From positions 6,114 to 63,163 of the forward strand of contig PS015031.1 in NCBI GenBank assembly GCA_048213135.1: a stretch of DNA of 57,050 nt. The letters run 5' to 3'. Positions 11,572 to 46,500 of the stretch are shown here, piece by piece; the first letter of the stretch is position 1, and each line of letters opens with the position of its first letter. The notes beneath the pieces are model-generated. The model ran no database searches and was not told the origin of the DNA. It was given only the letters and a program-made list of their open reading frames with translations. Made by a program: the position numbers and the translations under genes. The DNA is from Reclinomonas americana ATCC 50394 (lineage: Eukaryota).

Positions 11572-14500
11572 GNNNNNNNNNNNNNNNNNNNNGAGAGGGA
11601 GAGGGAGAGGGAGGGAGGGAGGGAGGGAGGGGGGCCAAGGGAGTCAAAAGGCAACGACATAGGGAGAGAGAAAGGAAGACAGAGGGAGAGGATGATGACA
11701 GAAAAAGAGACAGTGAATACGTGAAGACACATACAATGTACAACGCACGATGACGGAGAGACAGACAATGCGAAGAGGAAAGGGAAGGAGAGACAGAGAA
11801 ATAGAATGATACAGACACGGAGTGGGAGAGAATGCAAACAAGCGAGGCATAAGGAGTAAAGTGGGGAGCACAAAATGAGACAGAGGCACAATAGGAAAAT
11901 AGAATGTAAGAGAAGAGGTGAAGGTGGAAGTGGGAGAACCTGGTGACCGCAGAGAGAAAGACAGCATACAGGCAGGCAAGCAGGCGAGTGAAGAACGGAT
12001 GATGAAAAACACACAAGGATGAGGCAGAGCAACTGCGTGACGGAGAGAGTGAGCCCCGCCTCACCGATATGATTCCGCGGTATCTCCAGCGTATGAATCG
12101 TATTATTATGCAATAGCGGCTTCACCAGACACTCCATGCCGACCTTGCTCAGCGGCCCGCCCACAGATCCACCATACGCGAACACCTCGAATCCGCCAAT
12201 CTCCCTCTGCTGCTGCTGTTCGTGCAGATCATCATCATCGTCATCATCGTCTTGATCGCCCTGCTCCTCGTCCTCCGCCGCCGCACTGGCTGCCATGGCA
12301 TGCGTCTCCAGCAGCTCGAGGATGCCGCGCATCGGCCGTTCGCGGAGGGTCACACATGCGCTCTTGTAGAGCTGTGGGAGTGAGGAGATGAGGGAAAGGG
12401 CGAGTGAGTGAGGAAGAGACTCTGGGAAGGGCGAGTGAGTGACAAAAAAGAGAGCGTGGGAGGAAAAGAGTTGAAGTCACAGATAAGGAAAGAGTGAGAG
12501 AAGGAAGAGAGCGTGAGGAAGCGAGTAAGGAAGTGAGGGCGAGGGAAGGGTGATTGTGGGAAGAGCGAGAGAAGGCAAGGAGTGCGAGGAAGGAGTGAGG
12601 GAAGAGTGAGAGAAGGAAGGGATGGCGAGGCATGGATTGGAGAGAGGAACACAAGAATGAGTGACACGGGAGTGACAGAGAGAGAAGTGAGAATGAACGC
12701 CTGGCGAAGGAGCGAGAGTGACAGAAAGAGAAGAGTGAATAAGGACGGAGGGAGGGAGAACACGGATAAGGGAGCGACTGAGAAAGAGAAGAAAGTGGCG
12801 GAAGATTGAACGAAGAAACAGAGGAGAGAGACAGAGGAGAGGAGACGAGACAGAGGAGAAGAGAGACTCTGTTACACATCTCCTCCTTCCCCTCACTTCT
12901 CTCTGTCTGTCTCTCTCTCTCTCTCTCTCTNNNNNNNNNNNNNNNNNNNNCTCCTCTCCTCTCCTCTCCTCTCCTCTCCTCTCCTCTCCTCTCCTCTCCT
13001 CTCCTCTCCTCTCCTCCTCCTCCTCCTCCTCCTCCTCCTCCTCCTCCTCCTCCTCCTCCTCCTCCTCCTCCCTCTCCCTCTCCCTCTCCCTCTCCCTCTC
13101 CCTCTCCCTCTCCCTCTCTCCTTTGCCTTCTGACTCTTTTTGCCCCTCTCACGCCGCAGGCAACGAGGGCACGGTGGCACTCTGCACGGTTCTTCGCAGC
13201 AACACCACCATTGTCAACGTCAACATTGACAAAAACGACATTGGCGAGCGCGGTGGTATGCTGCTGGCTGCCACCCTGGAGCAGCACACGACGGGCCTGC
13301 GCATGTTGCGCGTCAGCCACAATCCGCTTGGTCGTGCCGCCTCGCGTGTGATCAACGCGGTCACGCGACACACGCAACTCACGCTGCTCGACATGACGGA
13401 GACTGGATTGGAGGCGGAGGATGCGCCATTTGTGTCGACGATTCTCGAGTTCTCGCGGACGCTTACGGTGCTCAGTTTGGCTAACAATCGTGTCGGCGAT
13501 CGCTTCATTGAGGGCATTGTCGACGGACTGGCGACGAATTCGACACTTGTTTCGCTCGGTACGTTGCGGGGCCGTGCATTTTTTGCTTATTACATTCAAG
13601 GGTCTCAATGATTTTTGGCGATCCTGTGCAGACCTCAGTGCCTGTGGCATCGGATATCACGGCGGGTCATTGCTGCGCGAGGCAATTGCCGCCAACCACT
13701 CGCTGCTGCGTTTGGATCTGGATTACAATCAACCAGGTATTCGAAAAGTAGCGATGACGACTATTCGTGTGGGTGTCTGACTATGACTTGCGACAGGCGG
13801 CAACAATGTGAAGAATATCCAGGCGTGCCTCGATCGCAACCAGCAGGACTACAAGGCGCGCACCGAGGCCGCGCGCATCAGGAGTGAGCGAGGGGTTTGT
13901 TATTGCTTCACTCAGTTATTCTCGACGTGAAGTGCCTCTCGACTCAGTCGCGTATGTTTCGACGCACAGCACGCCAGAACCGTGCACGAGCAGTTGCCAT
14001 CGTCACCGAGGACAGAGAGAATGCCGCCGGCCGAGGCTCCACCGCCCACTCGTCTCCCGCAGCCTGACATGCCGCAACTCTTGCCGACCCCTGCTTCCGT
14101 GGTGTCGCCGCGTTTCGTGCCGCTTCCGCTGGTGAATTCGTCCTCGGCTGCGTCCGGATCCTCTGGTCGCCGCAAGCCCACCGTCTCCATCGATCCCAAT
14201 GTGCACGACGAGGTGCCATCGCCCACCTTCAGCCACGTGGCGCCTGCCAGTGGTGCAGAGACGGCAGTGCGTCCGAGTGCGCCTTCGAGCGCTACGTTGT
14301 CGCCCAGCGATGCAGTGCAAGCGCTTGATCGAGAGCGCAGCAAGAACCGGCAGCGACAGCGTGAGCTCATCGGCGACCTCGCCTTCTCACCACCGGCCTC
14401 GCCACGCTCCGTGGTCACCCAACTCATTGCGGCCACTGCTGCGGCCGACACTGCTGCTGCAGCGACCGGTCGTGCCGCTGATTCACCGCTGCGGTCACCG

Positions 14501-16625: not shown

Positions 16626-17938
16626 CTAATCACTGTGGGGGAGAGAGAGAGATGAGGTGAGCACAAATACAGCCGTGAGCACAGTAATAGCAGCACGCAC
16701 TCGTCGTCCTCCAGGTCGAGGTGCTTCGCGAGAGCCCAGGCGGCGAACTCGTCGAACAGGATCACGCCACCTGCACAGATATTAGTAAGGGAGGGGAATA
16801 GCGAGAAAGGAGATGCACGTTGTGCGCACACCATGGTTGGTGTCGATCTCGCGGAAGACGGCGTCGGCAGACTGCGACGAGTGCAGGCCCCAGGTGTGCA
16901 GCGCGGGCATGGCGGCGCGCAGCTCGTCGGGGGTGATGCTAAAGAGGGAAGAAAAGTGAGCGTGAGGATGAAGACATTGAGGGAGGGAATGACCTTGTTA
17001 CGAACCGGCGATCGTGCGATGAGTCGATGCGAGCGAACATTTGGTACAGCTGAGTGCGGGGCGGGGATGAGCAGGGGAGGCGAGGGGGTGGATGAGCGGA
17101 AAAGGGAACGAAACAAGACGAGCAAGAATGACTTGAGAGAGAAAGGGAAGAGAGCACAGTGAGGAGAGAGAGCGGAAGAGAGAGCGGGAGAGAAAGAGAA
17201 AGAGAGAGAGAGACGAACATCTCTCCGCCCTCATTACATCGCACATTCCACATTCCCTTCACCCTCTCTCTACAAACCTCAAAGTACTCGCGCAGGTAGC
17301 GCAGCAGCAGGGCAAACTCCACACGCTGCACGTAGTCGTCGCCGACAGCGCTCTTGCCGTGGTAGGCAGCCTTGGCGGCCTGTGTCGCAGGGTGTGAGGA
17401 TGGAGTCGCAATGAGAGGCGAAGGGATTCATGCGTACCTGGAAGGCGCGCATGATGGCCGGCTTGCAGTCGAACATCTCGTCGAGGTGCAGCACGTCGCG
17501 AATGCCCTTGTCTGCGTGGGGGTGAGGAAAGGGGGAAGAAGTGAGGGAAGGGGTGAGGGAAGAGAGAGAGAGAGTCACAGAAGGACAACGAGAGCCCCAC
17601 AGAGGGTGCGACACAAGGGGAATGAGAAGACAATGAGGAATAGAGACAAAGAGCTGCACAGATCGTGAAGGCTGTGTTCAGGTTGCCGAGAACTCCTTAA
17701 GAAGTACGAGATGGAGAGAGAAAGGTCAAGGAGGTAGAGAGAGAGAAAGAGACATAAGTGCATAATGACATGCACAAATCGTGAGGAGGAAGAGCAGACA
17801 AGGAATACAGAGGAGAGACAAGTGCACAAACACATGCACAGATTGTGAAGGATGAGCTGCAGTTGTAACTCAAGAAGCGCGAAGTAGAGCGAGACACGGA
17901 GAAAGAGGACAATGGAAAGGGAGGGGCAATAGAAAGAC

Positions 17939-19100: not shown

Positions 19101-21602
19101 ATGGTTCTCCCCTTGTTGCGTTCGCCAGACTTGCAGCCGCTCGTGCGCGCAACTTGCAAGCACGCTGTGTGTGTGTGTGTGTGTTGCTGATCAACCCTGC
19201 TGCAGCTTGCGAGGGCGCGTCTCGCAGGTGCATGACTGGCAGGAGCCGCCAGAGCAGGTGTTGGAGGACTTTGCGCACATGCTTCCGTATTGGCCAGGCC
19301 AGGCCCACGACAGTGTGGTCGTCGATAACGTGCCAGTCGTTGGCATGGAGCGCACGTGCGATGTCAACTTTGTGGGCGCCGATGGCAGCGAGGAGGTGTG
19401 CTTGGATTCTTCATGCAGTTTCCTTCGTCGCGCGCACTGGTTGATGTGGAGTATGTGCAGGTCCGACTGATGGCGCACAGGAGCGTGCTGCTACATCGAT
19501 GCTCTGATGTGGCACACAAGGAGGAGATGCAAGCACCGATTGGTGGGCGACAACAGCGCAGTGCTCCATCGTTTCATTGTTCACTCATGAGCTGCTGCAA
19601 GCAGTTCCTGGTCAGCGAGGTATCAACATTGAATGCCCGACAGAGTGTTTGGTAAGTGAACGCAACCCTCTCCCCGCCTTCACAGTGAACATCTAGCTTA
19701 TTCTCTTCTCTCTCTCTCTCTCTCTCTCCCTCTCTCCCTCTCTTCCCCCCCNNNNNNNNNNNNNNNNNNNNNNNNNNNNNNNNNNNNNNNNNNNNNNNNN
19801 NNNNNNNNNNNNNNNNNNNNNNNNNNNNNNNNNNNNNNNNNNNNNNNNNNNNNNNNNNNNNNNNNNNNNNNNNNNNNNNNNNNNNNNNNNNNNNNNNNNN
19901 NNNNNNNNNNNNNNNNNNNNNNNNNNNNNNNNNNNNNNNNNNNNNNNNNNNNNNNNNNNNNNNNNNNNNNNNNNNNNNNNNNNNNNNNNNNNNNNNNNNN
20001 NNNNNNNNNNNNNNNNNNNNNNNNNNNNNNNNNNNNNNNNNNNNNNNNNNNNNNNNNNNNNNNNNNNNNNNNNNNNNNNNNNNNNNNNNNNNNNNNNNNN
20101 NNNNNNNNNNNNNNNNNNNNNNNNNNNNNNNNNNNNNNNNNNNNNNNNNNNNNNNNNNNNNNNNNNNNNNNNNNNNNNNNNNNNNNNNNNNNNNNNNNNN
20201 NNNNNNNNNNNNNNNNNNNNNNNNNNNNNNNNCTCTCCTCCTCTTCCCCCGGTCCCCGTCCTCTCTCTCTCCCTCCTCTCTCTCTCCCTCTCTCTCTTTC
20301 TGGCCGTGATCGCAGCATGCCGTGGCACAGGGACTGCAGTTTGTCTACACCGGCTCCGTGTCGTGTCAACGAGAGCGCATGGTGCAGCTGATGTGCACCG
20401 CTGCCGAGTTGCACGTCGACTCGCTGGCTATTGCGTGCGCAACTGTAGTTTTGAACGACATCTCTCTCGAGTCCGTCATGTTCTGGCTGGTGTGTTCATG
20501 TCGTGTTGAAGCACATCTATATGCGTCTCCACCCGTCTCACTGCAAGCTCTCAGGACGGCTTATGCGTGGAAGATGTCGGTGACGTATACTTTCCGCGAC
20601 TGATGCGCGCGTGTATGGAAGTGGTGGAGTGGCGGACTGCCGAGGTGATGCAGAGCGACGCCTTTTTGCACGCGAGTACGGCAGCCGTGTGCCGCGTCTT
20701 GTCGCACGATGTCATGTCGGTGCAAGAGGAGCAACTGTGGGACGCAGTTGTTCGCTGGGGCTGGTGAGTGGCGAGTGATTGGAGAGATGAAGCGCTCTAG
20801 TTCTGACTAACTTGCTCGTTTCGCGTGCAGCGCGCGTGCGAACATCTCGTCCGCCACCACAGTGGCCAGCTGGACTGATGACGATCGTGCACGGTTGCGA
20901 CAGGAGCTTGAACAGCCGCTGTCTCACATTCGCCTGTTTCACATGCCACGCGAAAGGTGAGTACTAGTAAGGCGCAGATGATGGCGGCAAGAGCTTAGCT
21001 GACGCATTGCAACATGCAGAATTGCCGAAGTGCGCGACAGTCAGCTGATTGACTCGGGGCGACTTCAGCAGTGGCAGATGTACGTTGTCGATTCAAGATC
21101 GGTTGACCGCGGACTGGTGCCGCCGGCGCGCAGACCTCCAGTCGCGATCGTGCAGGAGACGGATATCGAAATCAGTATCGACATGGATGTCGGTGCTGTC
21201 AACTACACCAGCACGGTTCCGTGCCCCCGCTGGGATGTCAATCTCTACTACAACCTGCCCAGCAAGCGCAGTTGTTTTGACTCTTGCGGGTACTGCTGCG
21301 AAATGACGTGCCGCTGCGTGCTCTTCTGCGACTGTGGCAACCCGTGCCGCGACTGCTGCGACTGCAACGGGTGTTCCAAGTCGTGTGGAGACTGCTGCTG
21401 TGAGGGTTGTTGCTATCCGTGTGGGCGCGGCTGTGCGGTTCGCTCTCGACGGTGTGGGAGAGGCTGCGCTGCGTGTACTCGTAGTTGTTGCCAGGGTTCC
21501 GAGAGGTGCTGCTGTGATATCTGCTGTGTTTGCATTTACAACTGCTGCGAAGCGAGATTTTGGGACCACCACGATAGCGCTTGGTGCAGGTGTTGTAGTT
21601 AG
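19101..21602 (+). CDS. BTB/POZ-BACK protein with Cys-rich C-terminal tail (copy A)
   Basis: BTB motifs CDVNFVG..VRLMAHRSVL and LQFVYTG; BACK motifs FLHAS...VLSHDVMSVQEEQLWDAVVRW and LLSHIRLFHM; final exon about one third Cys in its distal part. Start codon uncertain (19036 or 19101). Confidence 0.8.
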
Positions 21603-22305: not shown

Positions 22306-23833
22306 TTACTTTTCACCGAATAACCCGACCAACACGAAGATAGCAATCAAGATGAGAAAGCCAATAACAATCCAAAAGTACTTGCAGAAAATACCGGTGT
22401 ACTTCAGGCAATGCGGCGAGCAGCTCCGGCAGCAGTCGCCTAAGTGCTCGCAGAATTCCTTCGTACAAGCACCACATTTCCCGCAACACTCCGCAGTGCA
22501 CTCGCAGCAGGCTTTGCAGCAATCACCCGTGCACTCACAGCAGCCTTTGCAACATTCGCCCGAGCAACGAAGGCAATTCTCACAGCACACACCAGTGCCA
22601 TGACCACATCTCCTGCAGCATTCGCTCGTACAGGCACCGCAGCCTCTGCAGCACTTCTTGGAACCCTGGCAACAACTACGAGTACACGCAGCGCAGCCTC
22701 TCCCACACCGTCGAGAGCGAACCGCACAGCCGCGCCCACACGGATAGCAACAACCCTCACAGCAGCAGTCTCCACACGACTTGGAACACCCGTTGCAGTC
22801 GCAGCAGTCGCGGCACGGGTTGCCACAGTCGCAGAAGAGCACGCAGCGGCACGTCATTTCGCAGCAGTACCCGCAAGAGTCAAAACAACTGCGCTTGCTG
22901 GGCAGGTTGTAGTAGAGATTGACATCCCAGCGGGGGCACGGAACCGTGCTGGTGTAGTTGACAGCACCGACATCCATGTCGATACTGATTTCGATATCCG
23001 TCTCCTGCACGATCGCGACTGGAGGTCTGCGCGCCGGCGGCACCAGTCCGCGGTCAACCGATCTTGAATCGACAACGTACACCTGCCACTGCTGAAGTCG
23101 CTCCGAGTCAATCAGCTGGCTGTCGCGCACTTCGGCGATTCTGCATGATATATGCAATGCGTCTGATGAGCTCTTGCCATCATCTGCACATTACGAGTAC
23201 TCACCTTTCGCGTGGCATGTGAAACAGGCGAATGTGAGACAGCGGCTGTTCAAGCTCCTGTCGCAACCGTGCACGATCGTCATCAGTCCAGCTGGCCACT
23301 GTGGTGGCGGACGAGATGTTCGCACGCGCGCTGCACGCGAAAGTCAGATCTAGAGCGCTTCATCTCTCCAATCACTCGCCGCTCACCAGCCCCAACGTAC
23401 GACCGCATCCCACAGTTGCTCCTCTTGCACCGACATGACATCGTGCGACAAGACGCGGCACACGGCTGCCGTACTCGCGTGCAAAAAGGCGTCGCTCTGC
23501 ATCACCTCGGCAGTCCGCCACTCCACCACTTCCATACACGCGCGCATCAGTCGCGGAAAGTATACGTCACCGACATCTTCCACGCATAAGCCGTCCTGAG
23601 AGCTTGCAGTGAGACGGGTGGAGACGCACATAGATGTGCTTCAACACGACATGAACACACCAGCCAGAACATGACGGACTCGGGAGAGATATCGTTCAAG
23701 ACTACAGTTGCGCACGCAATAGCCAGCGAGTCGACGTGCAACTCGGCAGCGGTGCACATCAGCTGCACCATGCGCTCTCGTTGACACGACACGGAGCCGG
23801 TGTAGACAAACTGCAGTCCCTGTGCCACGGCAT
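22306..23833 (-). CDS. BTB/POZ-BACK protein, inverted near-identical copy B with a longer Cys-rich tail and a C-terminal TM helix; 5' exons not visible
   Basis: Reverse complement of about 20293-21500 found at about 23856-22660; diverges after RSCCQGS and ends FWIVIGFLILIAIFVLVGLFGEK*. Confidence 0.8.
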
Positions 23834-37198: not shown

Positions 37199-40100
37199 CT
37201 ACAGCTGGCCGTTCGAGGGAGACATGTATGACAGCATCGGCTGCGAGCCTGGGGGTGTGGGCGGTCGCGGAGGCGGTGGCATCATTGTTGTCGTTGTGGT
37301 GGAGCCAGCAGACGACATGGTGGACAGCATCATGCTGGCGGCGGCGGCGAGTGGTGACACGGAACGCACCACTCCGCTTCCCGCGGCTGTCGGTGCGGTN
37401 NNNNNNNNNNNNNNNNNNNCGTCGTCCTCGTCGTCGTCGTCGTCATCATCATCATCATCATCATCATCCGAGTCACGCTCGTCCGAGTCCCCCTCGTCGT
37501 CATCACTCTCGTTCTCGGAGGCACTCGCCATGGCCTCGTCTTCCTTCTTCTTCTCCTCACCGTTCTCCTCCTCCTCGTCGTCCTCTGTCTCGGTCTTGAA
37601 CGTTCGCGATCCTTGAGCGAGACCACCGCGTTTGCCACGCTTGCCTCCACGCCCACGAAAGCCGCCTCGACCACCTCTGCCACCTCGTCCACCCCGCCCA
37701 CCGCGGCCACCACGGCTGCCGGGTCCGTACTTGCCACGTCGCACTTTCGGCGACACAATGACAATGTCGACAGAGCTGGAGCTGTCGCTGCCACCGTCTT
37801 CCTCCTCCTGGTCCGAGTCGGCAGTCTTTCGGCGCGGCGAATCCTGCTCCATGGCCACCACGCCGGCATTCTTCTCTGCGTCCGAGGTGTCGCCACGAGC
37901 GATTCGCGCTCGCGCACGACCACGCTTGCCGCTGGTTTCCTCGGCAGTCGACGACTCCGCCTCCGACTCAGACGATGATGACTGAGACTCGTCGCCGTTA
38001 CCATCACCGCTGCCGTCACGTTTGTCTCCGCCACCTCCTCCTCCTCCGCCGCCTCCTGCTCCACCACTTCCACCACCACTGTCACCGTTGCCGTTGGGGG
38101 CTGTGGGACGCGTTTGCTTGCCGCCACGCTTGCCACCACCACCACCACGCTTGCCTCCGCTCTTTCCACCTCGCTTGCCACCCTTGCCGCGCTTGACACC
38201 ATATGCCTGGCGAGCAAAAACGGAGCCGTCCGATGGCAACAGAGGAACGGCGGCCTTGCTGCTGCTGCTGTTGTCGACATCGTCCTGCACTCCGTCTTGC
38301 TTCTCTGCTTGACTCTCATCTCGCGGAGCACGCTTGCCGCGCTTGCCAGAGCGTGCAACAGAGGGGCCAGGTTCGATGGATGCGCTGCGACTGGACACGG
38401 CACTGCCGCCGACCGCAGCACCACTGTCAACACTCATTGGCACCGAGGGCGGCACACGCAGTGTGTTTTGCGGCACTGCAACAATTGCGCGCGGCGCCGC
38501 AATCTACGGCATCACCGCACACAGAAGCATGTGAGAACAAATCAACAAGGAGCACGCATCACTCTGTTCGCAGCACACAGACCTGCACGTCGGGCACCGA
38601 CAACGACGGCGAAGGTGTGTGCGGTGGGAGGGGCGGCAGTGGTGGCAGCAGCGGTGATGGCGGCGGTCGCTGAGGTGCTGCTGCCGGTGATGCGGATCGC
38701 GAGCCGGCTGCGAAATCACTGAGTGAATCGTCGTCCGAGTTCATCGACACTGACGAGCGTGCCGACTGCGATGTGGCCGAGAGCACTCGAGTCGCACTCG
38801 GCACCACCGCCACCGCGGGGGTGCTGACAGTTGACGCAGTGGTGGTGGTGGCCGTGGTAGTGGTGGTCGCGCTGTTGTTGCCAGGAGTCGACGGTGCGGC
38901 CGAGGTGGGATCTCGCCGCTTCTGCAGCTCCATGTACTTTTTGATGCGTCGCTCCACGGCTCGGAAGATGGCCTCCAGTGTGCGATTGTAGCCGGCTGCT
39001 TTCAGTCGTTCACTGATCTGCAAAGTCATAGCAGTGGTGGTGGNNNNNNNNNNNNNNNNNNNNGCCATCACAGCAACAGCAACAGCAACAGCGATACGCG
39101 CAGAGTACCTTCTTATCATCGCCGTCGTCGTCGAGCGAGGGCGATAGTGCTGACATGGGCAGTGATGACGATAGTGACGACAGTGAGGAGGACGATGATG
39201 ATGATGATGGTGGTGTTGTGCGTGGCAAGAGTGTTGTGCATCAGCAGCGACAGCAGCCGCAGCAGCCGCGTCGCACGCCTGGTGGTCAGTCACTCGCCAC
39301 ACGCACACACACAACAACAAGAAAAGTATGTGACTTTTCTTTGTGTTAACAGTGGTGGTTCACTTGCCGGGGAGTGTGGCGCCACGCGGGCCTGTGTTGG
39401 AGTTCGCCTCGTTGGCGGGTGTGGATGCCTCGGCCGCAGCATTGTCGGCCACTGATGGCGTGACGACTCGTGGACTGATGACATGGGGCGGTGGCAGTGT
39501 GCACGAGCAGCAGCAGCAGCAACAGGCGTCCACTATCCGCAATGGTTTGCGTGCCTTATATGCTTTTGTTCTTTTGTTTATTAGCGACTGATGACGATAA
39601 GCAACGCAGGCTTCTGGAGCAAGGAAGGTACGGTTTTTTGCGTGCATGTGTGCATGTGATTCGACGTTAGTTTTGGCGCGCGCTTGGGTGACATGTCGCA
39701 CCCATGTCGCGCGCGTGTGCCGCCCACACTGGCGCATCAGTGATGCTTTTGTGTGTGTTACCGCTAGTGCACTGTGTGTCTGTGTTGCTGTGCACGAAAA
39801 GAGCGTGTGGAGACTGGAGGGAACGCGTGGACTTGTCCAATGTGATTTACATTGCGTGTTGTCTTTCTTTGTGTGTGTGCGTCTGCAGAGGAGAAGATCC
39901 TGCGACAGTGTGGTGTGTATTCTGGGGCCGATGAGACCGGGCGCATCCCGTTTGAAATGGCCGTCGAGGTGTGGTGTTGGTCGTGTGCTACTTCGGGGCG
40001 CTAATGATGATTGTGGCTGATCANNNNNNNNNNNNNNNNNNNNTGATGTTGTTGAGGAAGAGCACGCTTTCCCTTGGAGACAGTGGCCGCAGTCGCCAGT

Positions 40101-40222
40101 GACAGCAGTCCACCCAGTCCCCTTCCCGCACTGATGCTGTTGCTGCTGATGCTGTTGCGCATCACAAGTGGAGGCACAGAGGGCACAGCACCTCCGCCTC
40201 CACTGATTCCACCATACTCCAT
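37199..40222 (-). CDS. Low-complexity nuclear protein with a trihelix/Myb-SANT-like domain, KRGG/RGG repeats and acidic tracts
   Basis: Reads through only if contig 39064-40023 is flipped (LPQQHQ|PSQQQ exact join). Spliced segment SVWRLE..EKILRQC...VEISERLKAAGYNRTLEAIFRAVERRIKKY resembles the trihelix pattern W...E...L...I...L...GY.RT........Y. Confidence 0.6.
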
Positions 40223-40435
40223 CGTTGCGCGCGCTCGCAAAAGTGACTTGTAAGTGTTTGCTATGTGCAGCGAGCATGCAATTGTCATTAGTGTTTGTCT
40301 TTTGTGTTTGCAATGGAGGAGCCAAGCTCATCAGTGCCTCCTGCGCTCTTGCAACAGTGCACAAAGAGCGCCACAGTTGCGCCACACATGCTTTCCACAG
40401 AGTGTCACATCTCTTACTTTTTTGTTTGTTTTTTT

Positions 40436-43400
40436 ATGAAAAAAAAGGTGACTTTGAGTGCCTCTGATGGTGACATTGCGTCGCTCATTGATGAGCTGGG
40501 CGGGGTGTTGGCGGATAATGCGCGACTGGAGGATGTTGACTTTGAGGGTCGGTCGAGCTTATCTCTCACTAGGCGACTGTGTGTTTTGTTGCTCACACTC
40601 ACTTGCTCACTTGCTCTCTGTGTGTGTGTGTCTGTGTGTGTCTATATGTGTGTGTTTGTTTGCAGGAGTGACTCTGGGCGATGAGGACGCAGAGTCGTTT
40701 TGTCTGACTCTGTTGGGCCCGCAGACTGCAGCGCGAGTCAAGCACCTCTCCATGCCCTGTTGCGTTGACTAAGGAGACTCTGAGAGAGGGGCCCTCTCTC
40801 TCTCTTACTCACTCTCACTCACTGTCTCTTGCTCAGATGTGGGCGCTGGTTTCCGCACTGCATGCACTCTTGGTGATCGATTGGTCGCGCATCGGTTCTT
40901 GGAGGAGCTGGACTTGGCAGGCGCGTGGAGCCCTCTCTCTCTCTTTCTCACTCACTCATTCGTGTGAGGGCTTACTCTGTGTGTGTGTGTGTGTCACAGG
41001 CAATGAGTTTGGTGACGATGGAGTGGTGGCACTGGCCACGTCGCTGCGGAGCAATCTCATTCTGCGGTTTCTCAGTCTCTCGGGTGAGGCGAGAGAAGAA
41101 GGGAGGAGAGAGGGAGACGAGGGAGAGGAGCAAGGATNNNNNNNNNNNNNNNNNNNNNNNNNNNNNNNNNNNNNNNNNNNNNNNNNNNNNNNNNNNNNNN
41201 NNNNNNNNNNNNNNNNNNNNNNNNNNNNNNNNNNNNNNNNNNNNNNNNTCGAGCACCTCATCCTCTTCTGCACCCTGTACAGTGTTCCTTTCTGCTTAGA
41301 CAGTCCTTCAGGCACCGTGCCCTCTGCTGCACTCTGCACACTCCCCCTTTCAGCTTGCACGGTTGGAGCTGATCAATCGTCTCTCATGGCATTCCTTCAT
41401 TCCTCCGCTCACTGTCATTCTTCAGGTACCGGTTGTGGCGATCGAGGTGCCAAGGCCATCGCTGCGGCATTGGAGGTGAACAGCACGTTGCACTTTTTGG
41501 ATCTTTCTTGTTGCGTACCCCTCGCGACCTCCCCTTCTCCCTGTGCCTGGTCGTCTCACTGTGTGAACGCAGATTGTGAGATCCAATCAAGGGGCGCCGC
41601 GTCGCTGGCTGACGCTCTGCGCATCAACGCTGGCCTGCAGGAGCTCGACTTGCGCACGAACCCGTTGAGTGACTGTGCGGTGCTGTTTGCGGAGGCGCTG
41701 CGCAGCAACCGTGACTCGCACCTGACTGTGTTGGAGTTGCCGGGCATGTCGGCCGACGATCGGCTGCTGTTGTACGGTGCAATGCCGACGAAGAAGGCTC
41801 TCGCTCCCGTAGAACCAGCACGACCGGCGCCACCGCCTGCGGCAGTTGCTGCGCCGCCACCACCACCACAGCAGCCGGCTCATCAACACCACCACCATCA
41901 TCATCATCAGGTACACCCGCAAAATCACCAGCGACACGAACACGGCCACGTACCAGCAGATGGCGAGGATGATTACCTTGACGAACACGACGAGGACGAG
42001 GATGAGGATGAAGACGATGACGACGATCCACCACCACCACCACCGCCCCCACCGGCGGCAGCACCTGCTCCTGCGTCTGCGCCACCACCTGCTCCTGCTC
42101 CACCACCTCCAGCCCCCGCTCCACCACCTGCTCCCGAAGCCGCTCCACCACCTCCCGTTTCTGTCCCATTGCCCGCTCCCGTCGCCGTTCCACCACCTGC
42201 TCCCGTCGCCGCACCACCACCTCCATCACCAATGCCACCGCCTGTTGCCTCACCACCCGTAGAAGCATCAAAGCCCGTCGCGCCAGCCCCGTTATCTCTG
42301 GAGCCCCTGCCACCAGCAACTGAGCCGACGCCAGCTGAGCCTGCGTCGCCACCATCGCCTGGCTTTGTAGTCACTGTGTCGCCCTTGTTGTCGGTGCCCC
42401 TCCCGCCACCGCCTCCTGCCCCTTCACGAGCGGCTCCACCGGCGGCGGCTGCCTCTGATCACGCGTCCCCAGCGCCATCGCGTCCTCCGGCGATCCATGT
42501 TCCTCCCGCAGGCCACGAAGTGGCGCCCGCACCGCCAGTGCCACCCCCTGCACCGCAGGTAGACACGCCCGTGACACCGTCGACTCCTTCGTCGTCGGCT
42601 GCAAATGGCACGGCGTTGGAGGCGGTCACACTGGAGACCACGATGGAAGTCCTGCTGGATGCGGTGGCGGCGCACAACAAGTGGCCGCCGAAAATCGCCG
42701 CGCCGCTGGCCGCCACCTTTGAGGAGAATGTTGCGTGCGCTGGCTTTCTTGTACACTTTGTAATGTCTTTCTCACGCTCTGTGGTCGACGCACAGTTTAT
42801 TGTCACAGTGGAGACACTGTTGCACAACTGGCATGAGGTGCCGGGGTTCGGCGTCAAGTCGGTTCCGCTCAACTGCATTCGCCAATACCTGCTCAAGACA
42901 GTGGAGGAAAGCGGTGCGCTGCTGCTGCACATTCATATTCCCGCTTTATGTGTATCTGATCTGCTCCGCAGTGTTGAGAAAGTACCCGCCGTTCTGGGAT
43001 CCATTGCCACCCGCTTCACCAATGGCGACTGGCGCCGCTGCGGCCTCCGCCGCCGCCATGCTCATGGGCGATGTCAAAGTACAGACGTCGTTTGCACCGC
43101 CTCCAGCTCCGCCACCACCACCACCGCCGGCGCCGCCACCACCGCCGCCACCACCGGCAAGAAAGGCTGCAGGTTCGTGTCCCGCATGCTCACCTTCCTT
43201 TCCCACTGTAGATTTCGCTCATTGCATACATGCAGGAGTGGCCGGTGCCGCGGCGGGAGCATTGCTGGCAGGCATCAAGAGTCCACCATCGCTCAAGGCC
43301 GCACAAGCGGTGAGTTGGCTTTTTTTTTGCGCTCACGCCGCAGATTGATCCCTCACTCTCTTCCACCTCATTGCAGAATGGCCCGAGGTTATCCACCGAC

Positions 43401-43538
43401 CCATCGGTCGACCTGATGGGTGAACTCACTCGCCGACTGAGCATGCGAAGAGCGTCGCTGACGGCGAGCAAGAAGGGCAAGAAGTTGAAGAAGGACAGCG
43501 ACTCGGAATCCTCCGAAGACGAGTCAGAGAAATGGTGA
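40436..43538 (+). CDS. LRR - His/acidic - polyproline - small folded domain - WH2/Central/Acidic (WCA-like) protein
   Basis: LRR exons (LEELDLAGNEFGDDGVVALA, LQELDLRTNPL); long Pro-rich region; GALLAGIKSPPSLKAA; DLMGELTRRLSMRRASL; DSDSESSEDESEKW*. Confidence 0.8.
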
Positions 43539-43598
43539 TAATACATAAACAGGCAGGAGTCGTATATTATCATTATTGGTGGCGATGGTGGTGGTGGT

Positions 43599-46500
43599 TC
43601 ATGAGGCTCCCTTTTTCTGCTTGCCTGTCAACATCAAATCACGCCGCGGTTTCCTCGCCGATGCGTCGAGGGAAGGCAACGTCACTGTTCCCGCTCCTCC
43701 CGTGGGACTGGCTTTCGGTGGCGCGCCCGCACCTCGTGGCGACATGATGGGCGGTGGGGCGGCGACACGAGGCGATGCGGCAACTGGCGAGCGCGGTGAT
43801 TTGCGCGAGAGCGAGGGGTCGGCAGTGGCGCCGGCGAGCACGTCATGCGGCAGCGACATGGGTGGTGGGTGACTACGGCGGAGCAGCGGCACGCGCGAGC
43901 TCTTCGAGTGGTTGGGTTGCGGAGGCGGTGGTGGCGGTGGCGCGCCAGACGGGGTGGTTGAAGTTGCCGTGGACGAGCTGCCGCTGATTGGATCACCACC
44001 ACCACTGCTGGCACTGCCGGGCGCCGACGGGGTGGATGCGCCATTGGCAGCGGCGGAAGCACCACTGTCCGTCGACTGCGACAATGGTGGCGTCTTGCGG
44101 CCGTTCGCCTTGCGCCAGTTCGTGGAGCTGCGCACCGGCTGCAGAGGCGTCACGAGTCCCGAGCGTTGCATCAGGTCGCGCACAAGTTGCCGGCTGCGAG
44201 GCGACGTCTGACCAGTGGGCTGTCGCGGTGACAACAGTTTGCCGCCGCCGCGTGGGGAAGTAACGTTGGTCGGCAGCAGCCGGAGCGCGTGCGGTCTCCG
44301 CGGCGACACCACCACCGATACGACTTTGGAGGGTGACGTCGGGTCGCGATGAATGCCCACAAACTCCTTCGGGCCCGGTGCGATCATGCGCTCGTTCGCC
44401 ACGGCCACCGCCGGTGGGATCATCAGTGACGAATGCTGCTGCAATGAGGCGAAGAAGTGAGTGAGGAGGAATATCAGAGCAGCGTAGAAATGGCAAGCGC
44501 GACAGGAAAGGCGAGCAACGTGAGCACGAACTGCTGCACTTACCTTTGGCTGCTGTTCGACCAGTTGTGTGGATGGCGGTTCGGTGGGAGCCGAAGGGGG
44601 CAGTGCTGAACTTGAGTCGACTGGTGGCGTGGAGAGTACCTTGTGGCTGCCGCTGCCGTCCTCCATGGGCCGAATCAGTGGCGGAGACGGCGTGTCGCCA
44701 TAGTACTCTTCGAGTGTCGGCGACCAGGCCACACGCTTGGTGCCGCCACCGCCGCCGCCGAGTGGCGACGAGGAGCGCCCCTCGTGCTGTCGTAACCGCA
44801 TCGCCGCCACCTCCAGCATCGGCGCAATGAGACCGGAGGCGGCCTCCACAATATCGTGCGGCGATGGACTTGGCGATCGGGTGCGACGCCCGCCGCTGCC
44901 GTTGCTGCCAGCTGGCGACTGCGACCGTGACCGTGAGGCCGCTGCCAAGCGTATTTGCAATTCGTACAACTCCAGGGTCGTCAGCGGTTCGGTCGGCAGA
45001 TTTGCAATGTCCTCGGTGGCCACCACCGCCTCCTGCGCGCGCACCACCAGGGCGCGCTCATACAACCCCACCGTGTACGGGTAGAGGGCGTCGAGTGAGT
45101 TCTGCTCGTTTTGCAGCCGCCCAATGACACGAGAAACCTCAGTTCGTCTCCGGGTGAGGAAGACAATCTGCGTTGAGGAAGCAGAGAAGGTGAGGGTGGA
45201 CGGAAGTAAGAAGGCCTCTCTCTCGCGCGCGCGCGCACGTACCTCGGTCTTGCGCCGCTCCACCATGATTTTGGCGTCGGGGTCGAGTTTGCCCTCGTTG
45301 GCGGCGAGCGAGGTGCGGCACGATGTCAACTTCTCCTCCAGCTGTTGCGCCTCGCTGAGCAGAATGCTCATGCGATCGACGAGAACGTCGATCTCCGTAC
45401 GCAGTCGGTTCCGAATAGTGAGGAGTTGCGCCAGCGTGACGGGCTTGAGGTAGGTGCGCACAATCTCGGCGAGATTCTTGCCCTGCTGGGCTTGCACGAT
45501 CTGCAACAAGGGGGAGGGGAAGGGGAAGAGACGGGGGAAGTGAGAAGGAGAAGGAGGACGGAGGAGGGGGAAGGAGAAGGAAAGGAGAGGGGAGCGAGAG
45601 GAGAGAAAGGGAACGAGGAAAGGAGATGGGAGGATCGAAGAAAGGGAAGAGATGGATAAAGCGGAGGAAGGAGAGAAGGAGGAGACGGCGCCATTGCTCG
45701 TGTCTCTCAATCTTTTCTGTCTGCCCGACAGCCTCCCTACCACCTGTTTCTCAGTTCCTCCTCTCTCCCTATCTCTCTCTCTCTCTCCTCCCCTTCCCCC
45801 ACCCTCTCCACACAAACGCAACAGCCTTGACAACCAGCTCACGCGCACGCGCCAGCGACACCCGCGGCACCCACGGCGGCAACAGATTCACATTGAAGCA
45901 CACCTCCTCGCCNNNNNNNNNNNNNNNNNNNNATCGGCCTGCTCCACCGCCTCCCGATGCGCATCCATGGCCTCGGGCGAGACAATGAAGTCATCCAGCA
46001 ACCCAATGCCCGGCAACACCACGCGCATCATCGGCTGCGGCGGAGGCGACGCGGGAGGCGATCGCGGACGCATCATCATCATCATGGACGGCGACAGAGG
46101 CGACGACTCAAACACCGATCCCGTGCGCGCCCTCTGCAGCACCTGCTTATGCGACGACGGCGATCGATGCACCTCCCGATCGCCCACCGGACTGCGACTA
46201 CGCTGCCTCCCGCGATCCCTGCTGCTCTCCATCATTTGCTCCACAGTCAACGACACATGCGAGGCCTCGGAGGCCTCCGAGTCCTCGTCCCCTGGCACAG
46301 GCAGAAAGAGCGGATCATCGTCCATCCCATGCCCATCAGTGGGCGATCCCGAGCGCGTGGCAAAGTTCCCAAAGTCCGATGTCGTCATCAACGTCTTGAA
46401 CTCGTCAAACGTTAGCTCACCAGTGTCTGCGCTCTCAGTGAGACAGAGACTGTGAGACACGCAAGAGAGGAGCACACTGACCGTCCTTGTCGACTGAGTG

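Follow-up and report, generated by a model that had tools for sequence, protein, structure and literature searches.

Activators of the Arp2/3 complex are classed by their N-terminal domains, which set where and when branched actin forms. The subject of this analysis is a gene of Reclinomonas americana ATCC 50394 (assembly GCA_048213135.1) found in a stretch of 57,050 nucleotides of contig PS015031.1 (positions 6,114 to 63,163, forward strand), which is called the window below. Its predicted product joins a leucine-rich repeat (LRR) head to a C-terminal tail in which a WH2-like motif (W), a Central helix (C) and an acidic segment ending in Trp (A) follow one another. The LRR-WCA protein, as it is called here, is probably a class I Arp2/3 activator in which a new LRR head precedes a WASH-type tail.

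The WASP family has been described as a proline-rich region followed by a C-terminal VCA region (Kollmar, Lbik and Enge, 2012; PMC3298513, section 13). A VCA region behind a new N-terminus counts as a new subfamily in the same paper, and the amoebozoan subfamilies WAWH and WAML (section 10) likewise have unusual N-termini in front of VCA. The N-termini listed in that paper do not include an LRR head, and the term “LRR” occurs 0 times in its main text. WASH (WASHC1), especially that of dictyostelids, shares with the LRR-WCA protein a C-terminus of poly-Pro followed by W-C-A (PMC3298513). The nearest precedent for an LRR protein that activates Arp2/3 is the CARMIL of amoebae, namely Dictyostelium p116 and Acanthamoeba Acan125 (PMC2150732; PMC5491179). 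The verprolin-like and acidic region of CARMIL activates Arp2/3 in vitro (PMC2150732). A partial precedent is leiomodin (Lmod1-3), in which an RI-class LRR (RI, ribonuclease inhibitor), a proline-rich domain and a C-terminal WH2 stand in the same order (PMC9140763). An LRR-plus-CRIB protein is known from Acanthamoeba, and the available part of its description does not mention VCA (PMC8847673). In Naegleria, five further WH2 proteins have been listed, which could include the LRR-WCA layout (PMC7594500).

The LRR-WCA gene is predicted to have 11 exons on the plus strand (window 40313-43538), which encode 739 amino acids with 0 internal stops. At its extreme C-terminus lies the layout that defines the WASP family (poly-Pro, W, C and A), with an imperfect WH2. 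An earlier reading made without database searches (the sequence-only reading) had described this end as poly-Pro, GALLAGIKSPPSLKAA, DLMGELTRRLSMRRASL, a basic patch and DSDSESSEDESEKW before the stop. The order was borne out, and the motifs lie where that reading had placed them, on the plus strand in one frame joined through ordinary introns. The patterns for W, C and A were taken from section 11 of PMC3298513. The C pattern occurs at amino acids 699-714, with three hydrophobic residues four apart, a basic doublet and a closing hydrophobic residue; a second match lies in the middle domain of the protein (amino acid 587), and the pattern alone is therefore not unique. The last 13 residues include 6 Asp or Glu, and the last one is Trp. 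The WH2-like motif agrees with its pattern at 8 of 10 positions. It falls short of the strict pattern, and the relaxed pattern matches at this place only. The W-C-A module of the sequence-only reading thus holds for C and A, and for W to the extent just given.

The combination of the C pattern with an acidic Trp tail was found in 1 of the 988 stop-terminated frames of the window, which is that of the LRR-WCA gene, and in 0 of 74,373 frames from 60 shuffles, although the comparison was not blind, as the site had been picked for its motif and the authors had set the threshold for an acidic tail. Singly, the acidic Trp tail appeared in 41 of the shuffled frames and the C pattern in 567. These counts bear on whether the tail motifs are chance products of a low-complexity region, in which case the protein would be an ordinary LRR scaffold whose tail is basic and acidic, the basic part possibly serving nuclear targeting. 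Such an origin would fit the lack of a significant motif in any profile search and the frequency of acidic and basic runs among the window frames. It is nonetheless very improbable, given that the combination is absent from the shuffles and that four motifs stand in family order with WASH-type wording.

By its motifs, the tail appears most like that of amoebozoan WASH, basic patch included. A C helix of the type DLM..L...LSMRR is common to WASH and the LRR-WCA protein. In the supplement alignments of PMC3298513, all 9 occurrences of LSMRR are in the WASH file, which upholds the earlier description of the C helix as WASH-type, and all 6 occurrences of RR[QST]SI are in the amoebozoan block of WASH. 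The dictyostelid WASH rows show the same order as the LRR-WCA protein, with the C helix followed by a short basic patch, a run of Ser and Asp, and Trp. Because the amoebozoan rows have it too, the basic patch is a WASH-like trait rather than a novelty. The two proteins differ in the WH2 linker, which is 4 residues long here, against 6 for the dictyostelid rows and about 10 for most WASH proteins. They also differ in front of the tail, where the LRR-WCA protein, unlike WASH, has a long His-rich, acidic and Pro-rich linker and an extra helical domain. Finally, WASH begins with a WAHD domain and the LRR-WCA protein with an LRR head. Three WAHD motif patterns drawn from the curated rows gave 0 matches in the model or in the plus-strand frames of 39000-44000.

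Several results weigh against a WASH-type activator. The WH2 departs from its pattern at two positions (G and A) and has no hydrophobic residue in its linker. A Pfam scan of the exon pieces, a check that the sequence-only reading had suggested, gave no match to WH2 and none to WASH. The tail exons matched no WASP-family chain among PDB sequences at E<=10. The words RRASL, MRRAS, LTRRL and LMGEL have 0 occurrences in the curated alignments, and the link to WASH therefore stands on a handful of short motifs compared by eye and not on a tree. No orthologue of the LRR-WCA layout was found in protein, metagenome, plasmid and viral searches. Lastly, retention of intron 8 would lead the frame to a stop at 43416, and the tail would be lost.

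The state of the WH2 is what separates a full activator from a protein that binds Arp2/3 through C and A only. With a WH2 too weak to act, the latter would be a helper that works with a WH2 partner in trans, or a competitor that dampens activation. The two off-pattern positions, two prolines in the linker and the missing Pfam WH2 match would suit it, and fungal myosin I with verprolin offers a precedent in trans (PMC2150732). On the other hand, the three hydrophobic residues of the helix, the four-residue linker and LK are all present, and the motif has its own exon precisely between poly-Pro and C. Both departures are also attested in curated family members (PMC3298513 alignments). LLAGI is the WH2 start in 3 fungal WASPs, and LKAA, which occurs 15 times, is the WH2 end in 1 case, Thecamonas WAWH. 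A protein with only C and A at work is thus regarded as unlikely, and a tail with W, C and A is preferred.

The searches for relatives used one exon at a time or read-throughs that included intron sequence, and were less sensitive for it. The last exon found 0 of 114 candidates, 0 of 597 metagenome stretches and 0 of 164 viral stretches. The LRR part found 2 of 2101 candidates and 5 of 506 metagenome stretches, all of them generic LRR proteins without a WCA tail. A literature search whose coverage left out most subscription papers found no published description of an LRR-headed W-C-A protein, in keeping with the earlier claim of an undescribed architecture. By the defining features of their N- and C-termini, the LRR-WCA protein falls outside WASH, WASP, WAWH, WAML and CARMIL. 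The CRIB pattern was not found in the model, and no IMD domain was found with Pfam. Since VCA with a new N-terminus is the criterion of PMC3298513, the gene is a candidate for a new WASP subfamily, with one gene so far.

These comparisons presuppose that the LRR head and the tail belong to one chain. Introns 6, 7 and 9 are in frame and stop-free, and the chain would therefore survive their retention. The only frame-critical joins between LRR and tail are introns 8 and 10. Intron 10 has 8 AGs after its donor, and both YAG acceptors (n=2) preserve the frame of C and A. In intron 8, the first AG past the donor yields the model frame. The model could still be wrong, with LRR and WCA on separate chains (because intron 8 is kept or spliced differently, because the tail is a short gene of its own, or because the scaffold is mis-joined at the N gap) or with a longer 5' end. 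The LRR frame is open through intron 8 until its stop, exon 9 has an in-frame ATG, a gap of 111 N lies within intron 5, a GTTGCG at 40224 might bring an upstream frame into exon 1, and the splice junctions are predictions from the DNA letters. An error of this kind is considered unlikely. Intron 8 has the donor G/GTGCGC, the branch motif CTGAT and the acceptor CAG, and neither a stop nor intergenic space separates the middle domain from the tail. The linkage is also independent of the scaffold join, because exons 6 and 7, which encode three and a half LRRs, lie with the tail downstream of the N gap. At the 5' end, the upstream acceptors for exon 1 are non-YAG or have no branch motif.

The LRR head is, as far as sequence matches and structure models tell, a generic RI-class LRR. 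About 7 repeats are counted. The pattern LxxLxL places strands at amino acids 48, 107, 135, 163, 191 and 220, and a further strand, at 79, is recognised by eye. Exons 4 to 6 have 84 nucleotides each in phase 1-1 and encode one LRR apiece. With the exon 6-7 read-through as query, ribonuclease inhibitor was the top match among PDB sequences (E 1.4e-10); further matches included axonemal LRR proteins, NLRP1, RanGAP, NOD2 and CARMIL1 (E 0.022). Single exons matched Pfam LRR_6 only below the cut-off. The sequence-only reading had taken the N-terminus to be a short LRR solenoid, and the PDB match to an RI-like LRR agrees with this; it is not WH1, WHD, WAHD or IMD. The structure model of the same read-through (predicted local distance difference test, pLDDT, 72) gave no fold match at E<=0.001. 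NOD2 ranked first (template modelling score, TM, 0.60, 30% identity), and DRC5 was near. More coding pieces of RI-like LRRs are found at about 11600-13800 of the window (LRR_6 E 3e-5 at 12952-13608, plus strand), with about 22% identity to the LRR of the LRR-WCA gene.

The fold comparison also bears on a leiomodin-like function, in which the LRR would bind actin subunits and nucleate filaments with the WH2, without Arp2/3. The order LRR, poly-Pro and WH2 is identical in leiomodin (PMC9140763), which the sequence-only reading had not named. In the comparison for an actin-binding LRR of the ABS2 type, tropomodulin and leiomodin LRRs fit the model at TM 0.51-0.61 with 16-22% identity, a tie with other RI-class LRRs (tropomodulin TM 0.61, 16%; leiomodin-1 0.54, 16%; CARMIL 0.53, 19%). 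Their identities are nevertheless below the 30% of NOD2, and neither protein is among the 45 PDB sequence matches of the three and a half repeats in exons 6 and 7. Leiomodin differs further in its N-terminal tropomyosin-binding part and its LRR-based nucleation. A C helix and an acidic Trp tail, which are well formed in the LRR-WCA protein, are not described for leiomodin in the available part of PMC9140763. Nucleation of the leiomodin kind is accordingly improbable.

CARMIL differs from the LRR-WCA protein in repeat number, domain order and C-terminus, and the contrast that the sequence-only reading drew with CARMIL is upheld. It has 16 central LRRs behind a separate N-terminal domain, compared with about 7 that begin within the first 50 residues; a longer 5' end of the LRR-WCA gene, which would touch this count, keeps a residual chance. 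In CARMIL, V and A are followed by a proline-rich region, and the region that binds capping protein comes last, whereas the LRR-WCA protein runs through poly-Pro, W, C and A to the stop (PMC2150732; PMC5491179). Its C helix and terminal Trp also mark it off from CARMIL. The pattern of the CPI motif was not found in the model. A PH domain has been described for vertebrate CARMILs (PMC2150732; PMC5491179).

Between the LRR head and the tail lie a disordered linker, with 35% Pro and 19% Ala at amino acids 241-520, and a middle domain. The sequence-only reading had placed a folded domain at about 42620-42990. The span was confirmed with small changes, and it is now seen to be split by introns 7 (42730-42795) and 8 (42914-42971). 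A single-sequence model of the domain with intron included was all helical at pLDDT 50; this model gave no Foldseek match at E<=0.001, and the best VIA-align Z of 4.8 did not stand out; these results carry no weight as to the fold. There was no match in Pfam or PDB sequences. Relatives were found in 0 of 234 candidates at E<=1, in 0 of 1.84 billion representatives, in no plasmids and in 0 of 8 viral stretches. A SAM domain, guessed from residue spacing, found no support, with no Pfam hit and two negative tests. A profile of 9 SAM_1 sequences (a small, bacterial set) scored -0.1 bit, a value reached by 98 of 2000 shuffles, and in a pairwise test against a small bacterial reference set 471 of 1000 shuffles were as high. 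SAM_1 domains were themselves seen in 9 of 201 genomes of one bacterial class (L086-L094) and in 0 of 251 others (50 + 201 prokaryote genomes). By eye, the helix that opens the middle domain (42625-42660, plus strand) looks like the one that opens WASH N-termini in the curated rows, and the remainder does not go on as WAHD; the likeness is probably due to chance among amphipathic helices. The end of exon 8 resembles by eye the autoinhibitory (WAID) segment of Entamoeba WAML, a lead without PDB or Pfam support. The domain may serve as a latch that holds the C helix shut, or as a clustering module.

The proposed activity follows the mechanism described for the WASP family (PMC10330494). The poly-Pro tract would gather profilin-actin and SH3 adaptors, the WH2 would hold one actin monomer, and the C helix with the acidic Trp tail would bind and activate Arp2/3 to start a new branched filament. 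The basic patch may bind acidic membrane lipids. As WAHD, WHD and CRIB are lacking, control would come from elsewhere, with targeting or sensing by the LRR and latching or clustering by the middle domain. Placement and switching would then depend on the LRR ligand, with no part for the WASH complex, the WAVE complex or a GTPase bound to CRIB. The wording of the tail and the one-repeat-per-exon LRR suggest WASH ancestry by exon shuffling, with a WASH gene as the source of the tail and the N-terminal complex-assembly domain swapped for a short LRR solenoid. A bolder reading, put forward tentatively and thought doubtful, is that a WASH-type tail was freed from the WASH complex and shuffled onto an LRR sensor as a one-chain switch from receptor to actin. 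The LRR ligand (a prey, symbiont, organelle or axonemal protein) would then trigger branched actin directly, with no regulatory complex or CRIB-bound GTPase.

The features of the gene are collected in the table.

Table. Predicted features of the LRR-WCA gene (window coordinates)
Feature	Position	Strand	Remark
LRR-WCA gene, exons 1-6	40313-40375, 40448-40547, 40666-40758, 40837-40920, 41000-41083, 41426-41509	+	
LRR-WCA gene, exons 7-11	41573-42729, 42796-42913, 42972-43172, 43236-43309, 43377-43538	+	
Exon 1 with probable start codon 40313 (amino acids 1-21)	40313..40375, 63 nucleotides	+	In-frame splicing via a GTTGCG..AAG intron
RI-like LRR solenoid, exons 2-7	40448..41784	+	LxxLxL strands; PDB ribonuclease inhibitor match
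Intron 5, 342 nucleotides, with 111-N gap 41138-41248	41084..41425	+	Room for one more 84-nucleotide LRR exon
Disordered linker: His-rich 41878-41952, acidic run 41956-42027, long Pro/Ala-rich region	41800..42594	+	
Middle domain, about 80 amino acids, probably helical (amino acids about 521-600)	42625..42988	+	Ordinary composition; low-confidence all-helical model
Second poly-Pro tract, runs of 7 and 8 Pro, directly before WH2	43097..43159	+	Candidate profilin/SH3 sites
Exon 10, WH2-like LLAGIK-SPPS-LKAA (amino acids 671-684), GALLAGIKSPPSLKAA	43236..43309	+	
C helix, WASH-type (amino acids 697-714), DLMGELTRRLSMRRASL, exon 11 (43377-43538)	43407..43460	+	
Basic patch KKGKKLKK between C and A, exon 11	43470..43493	+	
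Acidic Ser-rich tail, terminal Trp739 and stop, DSDSESSEDESEKW, exon 11	43494..43538	+	

Of the 10 introns, 9 are GT-AG and 1 is GC-AG. Nine are 58-118 nucleotides long, and 9 of the 10 have a CTNAY branch-like motif within 45 nucleotides of the acceptor. The protein had been taken to start at the ATG at 40436. This ATG lies in the pyrimidine tract of the probable intron 1, and the 63-nucleotide exon 1 joins in frame; the start at 40313 is therefore favoured, and the LRR head is intact from either. The upstream GTTGCG at 40224 could join exon 1 in frame at a TAG (40292) or GAG (40319) acceptor. Splicing of this kind is judged unlikely, the TAG having no branch motif. Intron 6, which begins with GTTGCG, is independently backed by the 4 homologous rows across it, which show a gap of 21 columns there, and by a pLDDT below 50 across residues 29-47 of the read-through model. 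After A or T, GTTGCG begins 4 of the 10 introns (40376, 40759, 41510 and 42730, plus strand). It occurs 63 times in the window against 37.8 in shuffles (1.7-fold enriched), and is preceded by G in only 9 of the 63. The GC donor, that of intron 4, is at 40921 (plus strand) after the exon end CAG. The N gap in intron 5 could hide one extra LRR exon of the length seen in exons 4 to 6.

Further observations touch the tail. In exon 9, a short hydrophobic motif (43052-43081, plus strand) looks like half of a second WH2, with the helix but no LK part, and may be a decayed WH2. The Ser-rich acidic tail presumably has sites of the casein-kinase-2 type. A VASP-like GAB-FAB reading of the tail was dropped because an acidic Trp tail, and not a coiled coil, closes the chain. 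The WH2 exon, as a piece of 36 residues that includes 12 intronic ones, was co-folded with a giant-virus actin as a stand-in (score 0.02, mark 0.34). Giant-virus contigs were seen to carry full-length actin genes near eukaryotic actin (L104:562-1710, L105:229-1344 and L107). Viral actins are already in print.

The window holds eukaryotic DNA rich in introns; it has 22 runs of N, and its genes include cyclophilin and THOC1. The LRR-WCA gene lies between an upstream gene without a family and a convergent gene with a frame that ends at 43599. The upstream multi-exon gene (39064-40253, plus strand) has no Pfam family above the cut-off, and an N gap at 40024-40043 obscures its last exon. A 20-N gap at 39044-39063 splits two divergent gene bodies, a trihelix/Myb-like frame (minus strand, by eye) and an acidic frame (plus strand), both seemingly without 5' ends; additional DNA may lie in the gap, or the join there may be wrong. 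Elsewhere, the piece at 16942-17427 (minus strand) is similar, below the cut-off, to the EF-hand of flagellar calcium-binding proteins (Pfam FCaBP, E 0.052), a faint pointer to a flagellate. Near-identical Cys-rich frames on opposite strands, at 21003-21599 (plus) and 22309-23190 (minus), form an inverted duplication.

The weight of the LRR-WCA gene is limited at present to a single gene with no relatives found, partial precedents in amoeba CARMIL and leiomodin, and a predicted activity. If the preferred reading is true, the tail of WASH can leave its obligate complex and take a new input, and a simple one-chain activator would result. The LRR-WCA layout also points to where an activator might be sought in lineages that possess Arp2/3 and lack a recognised one.

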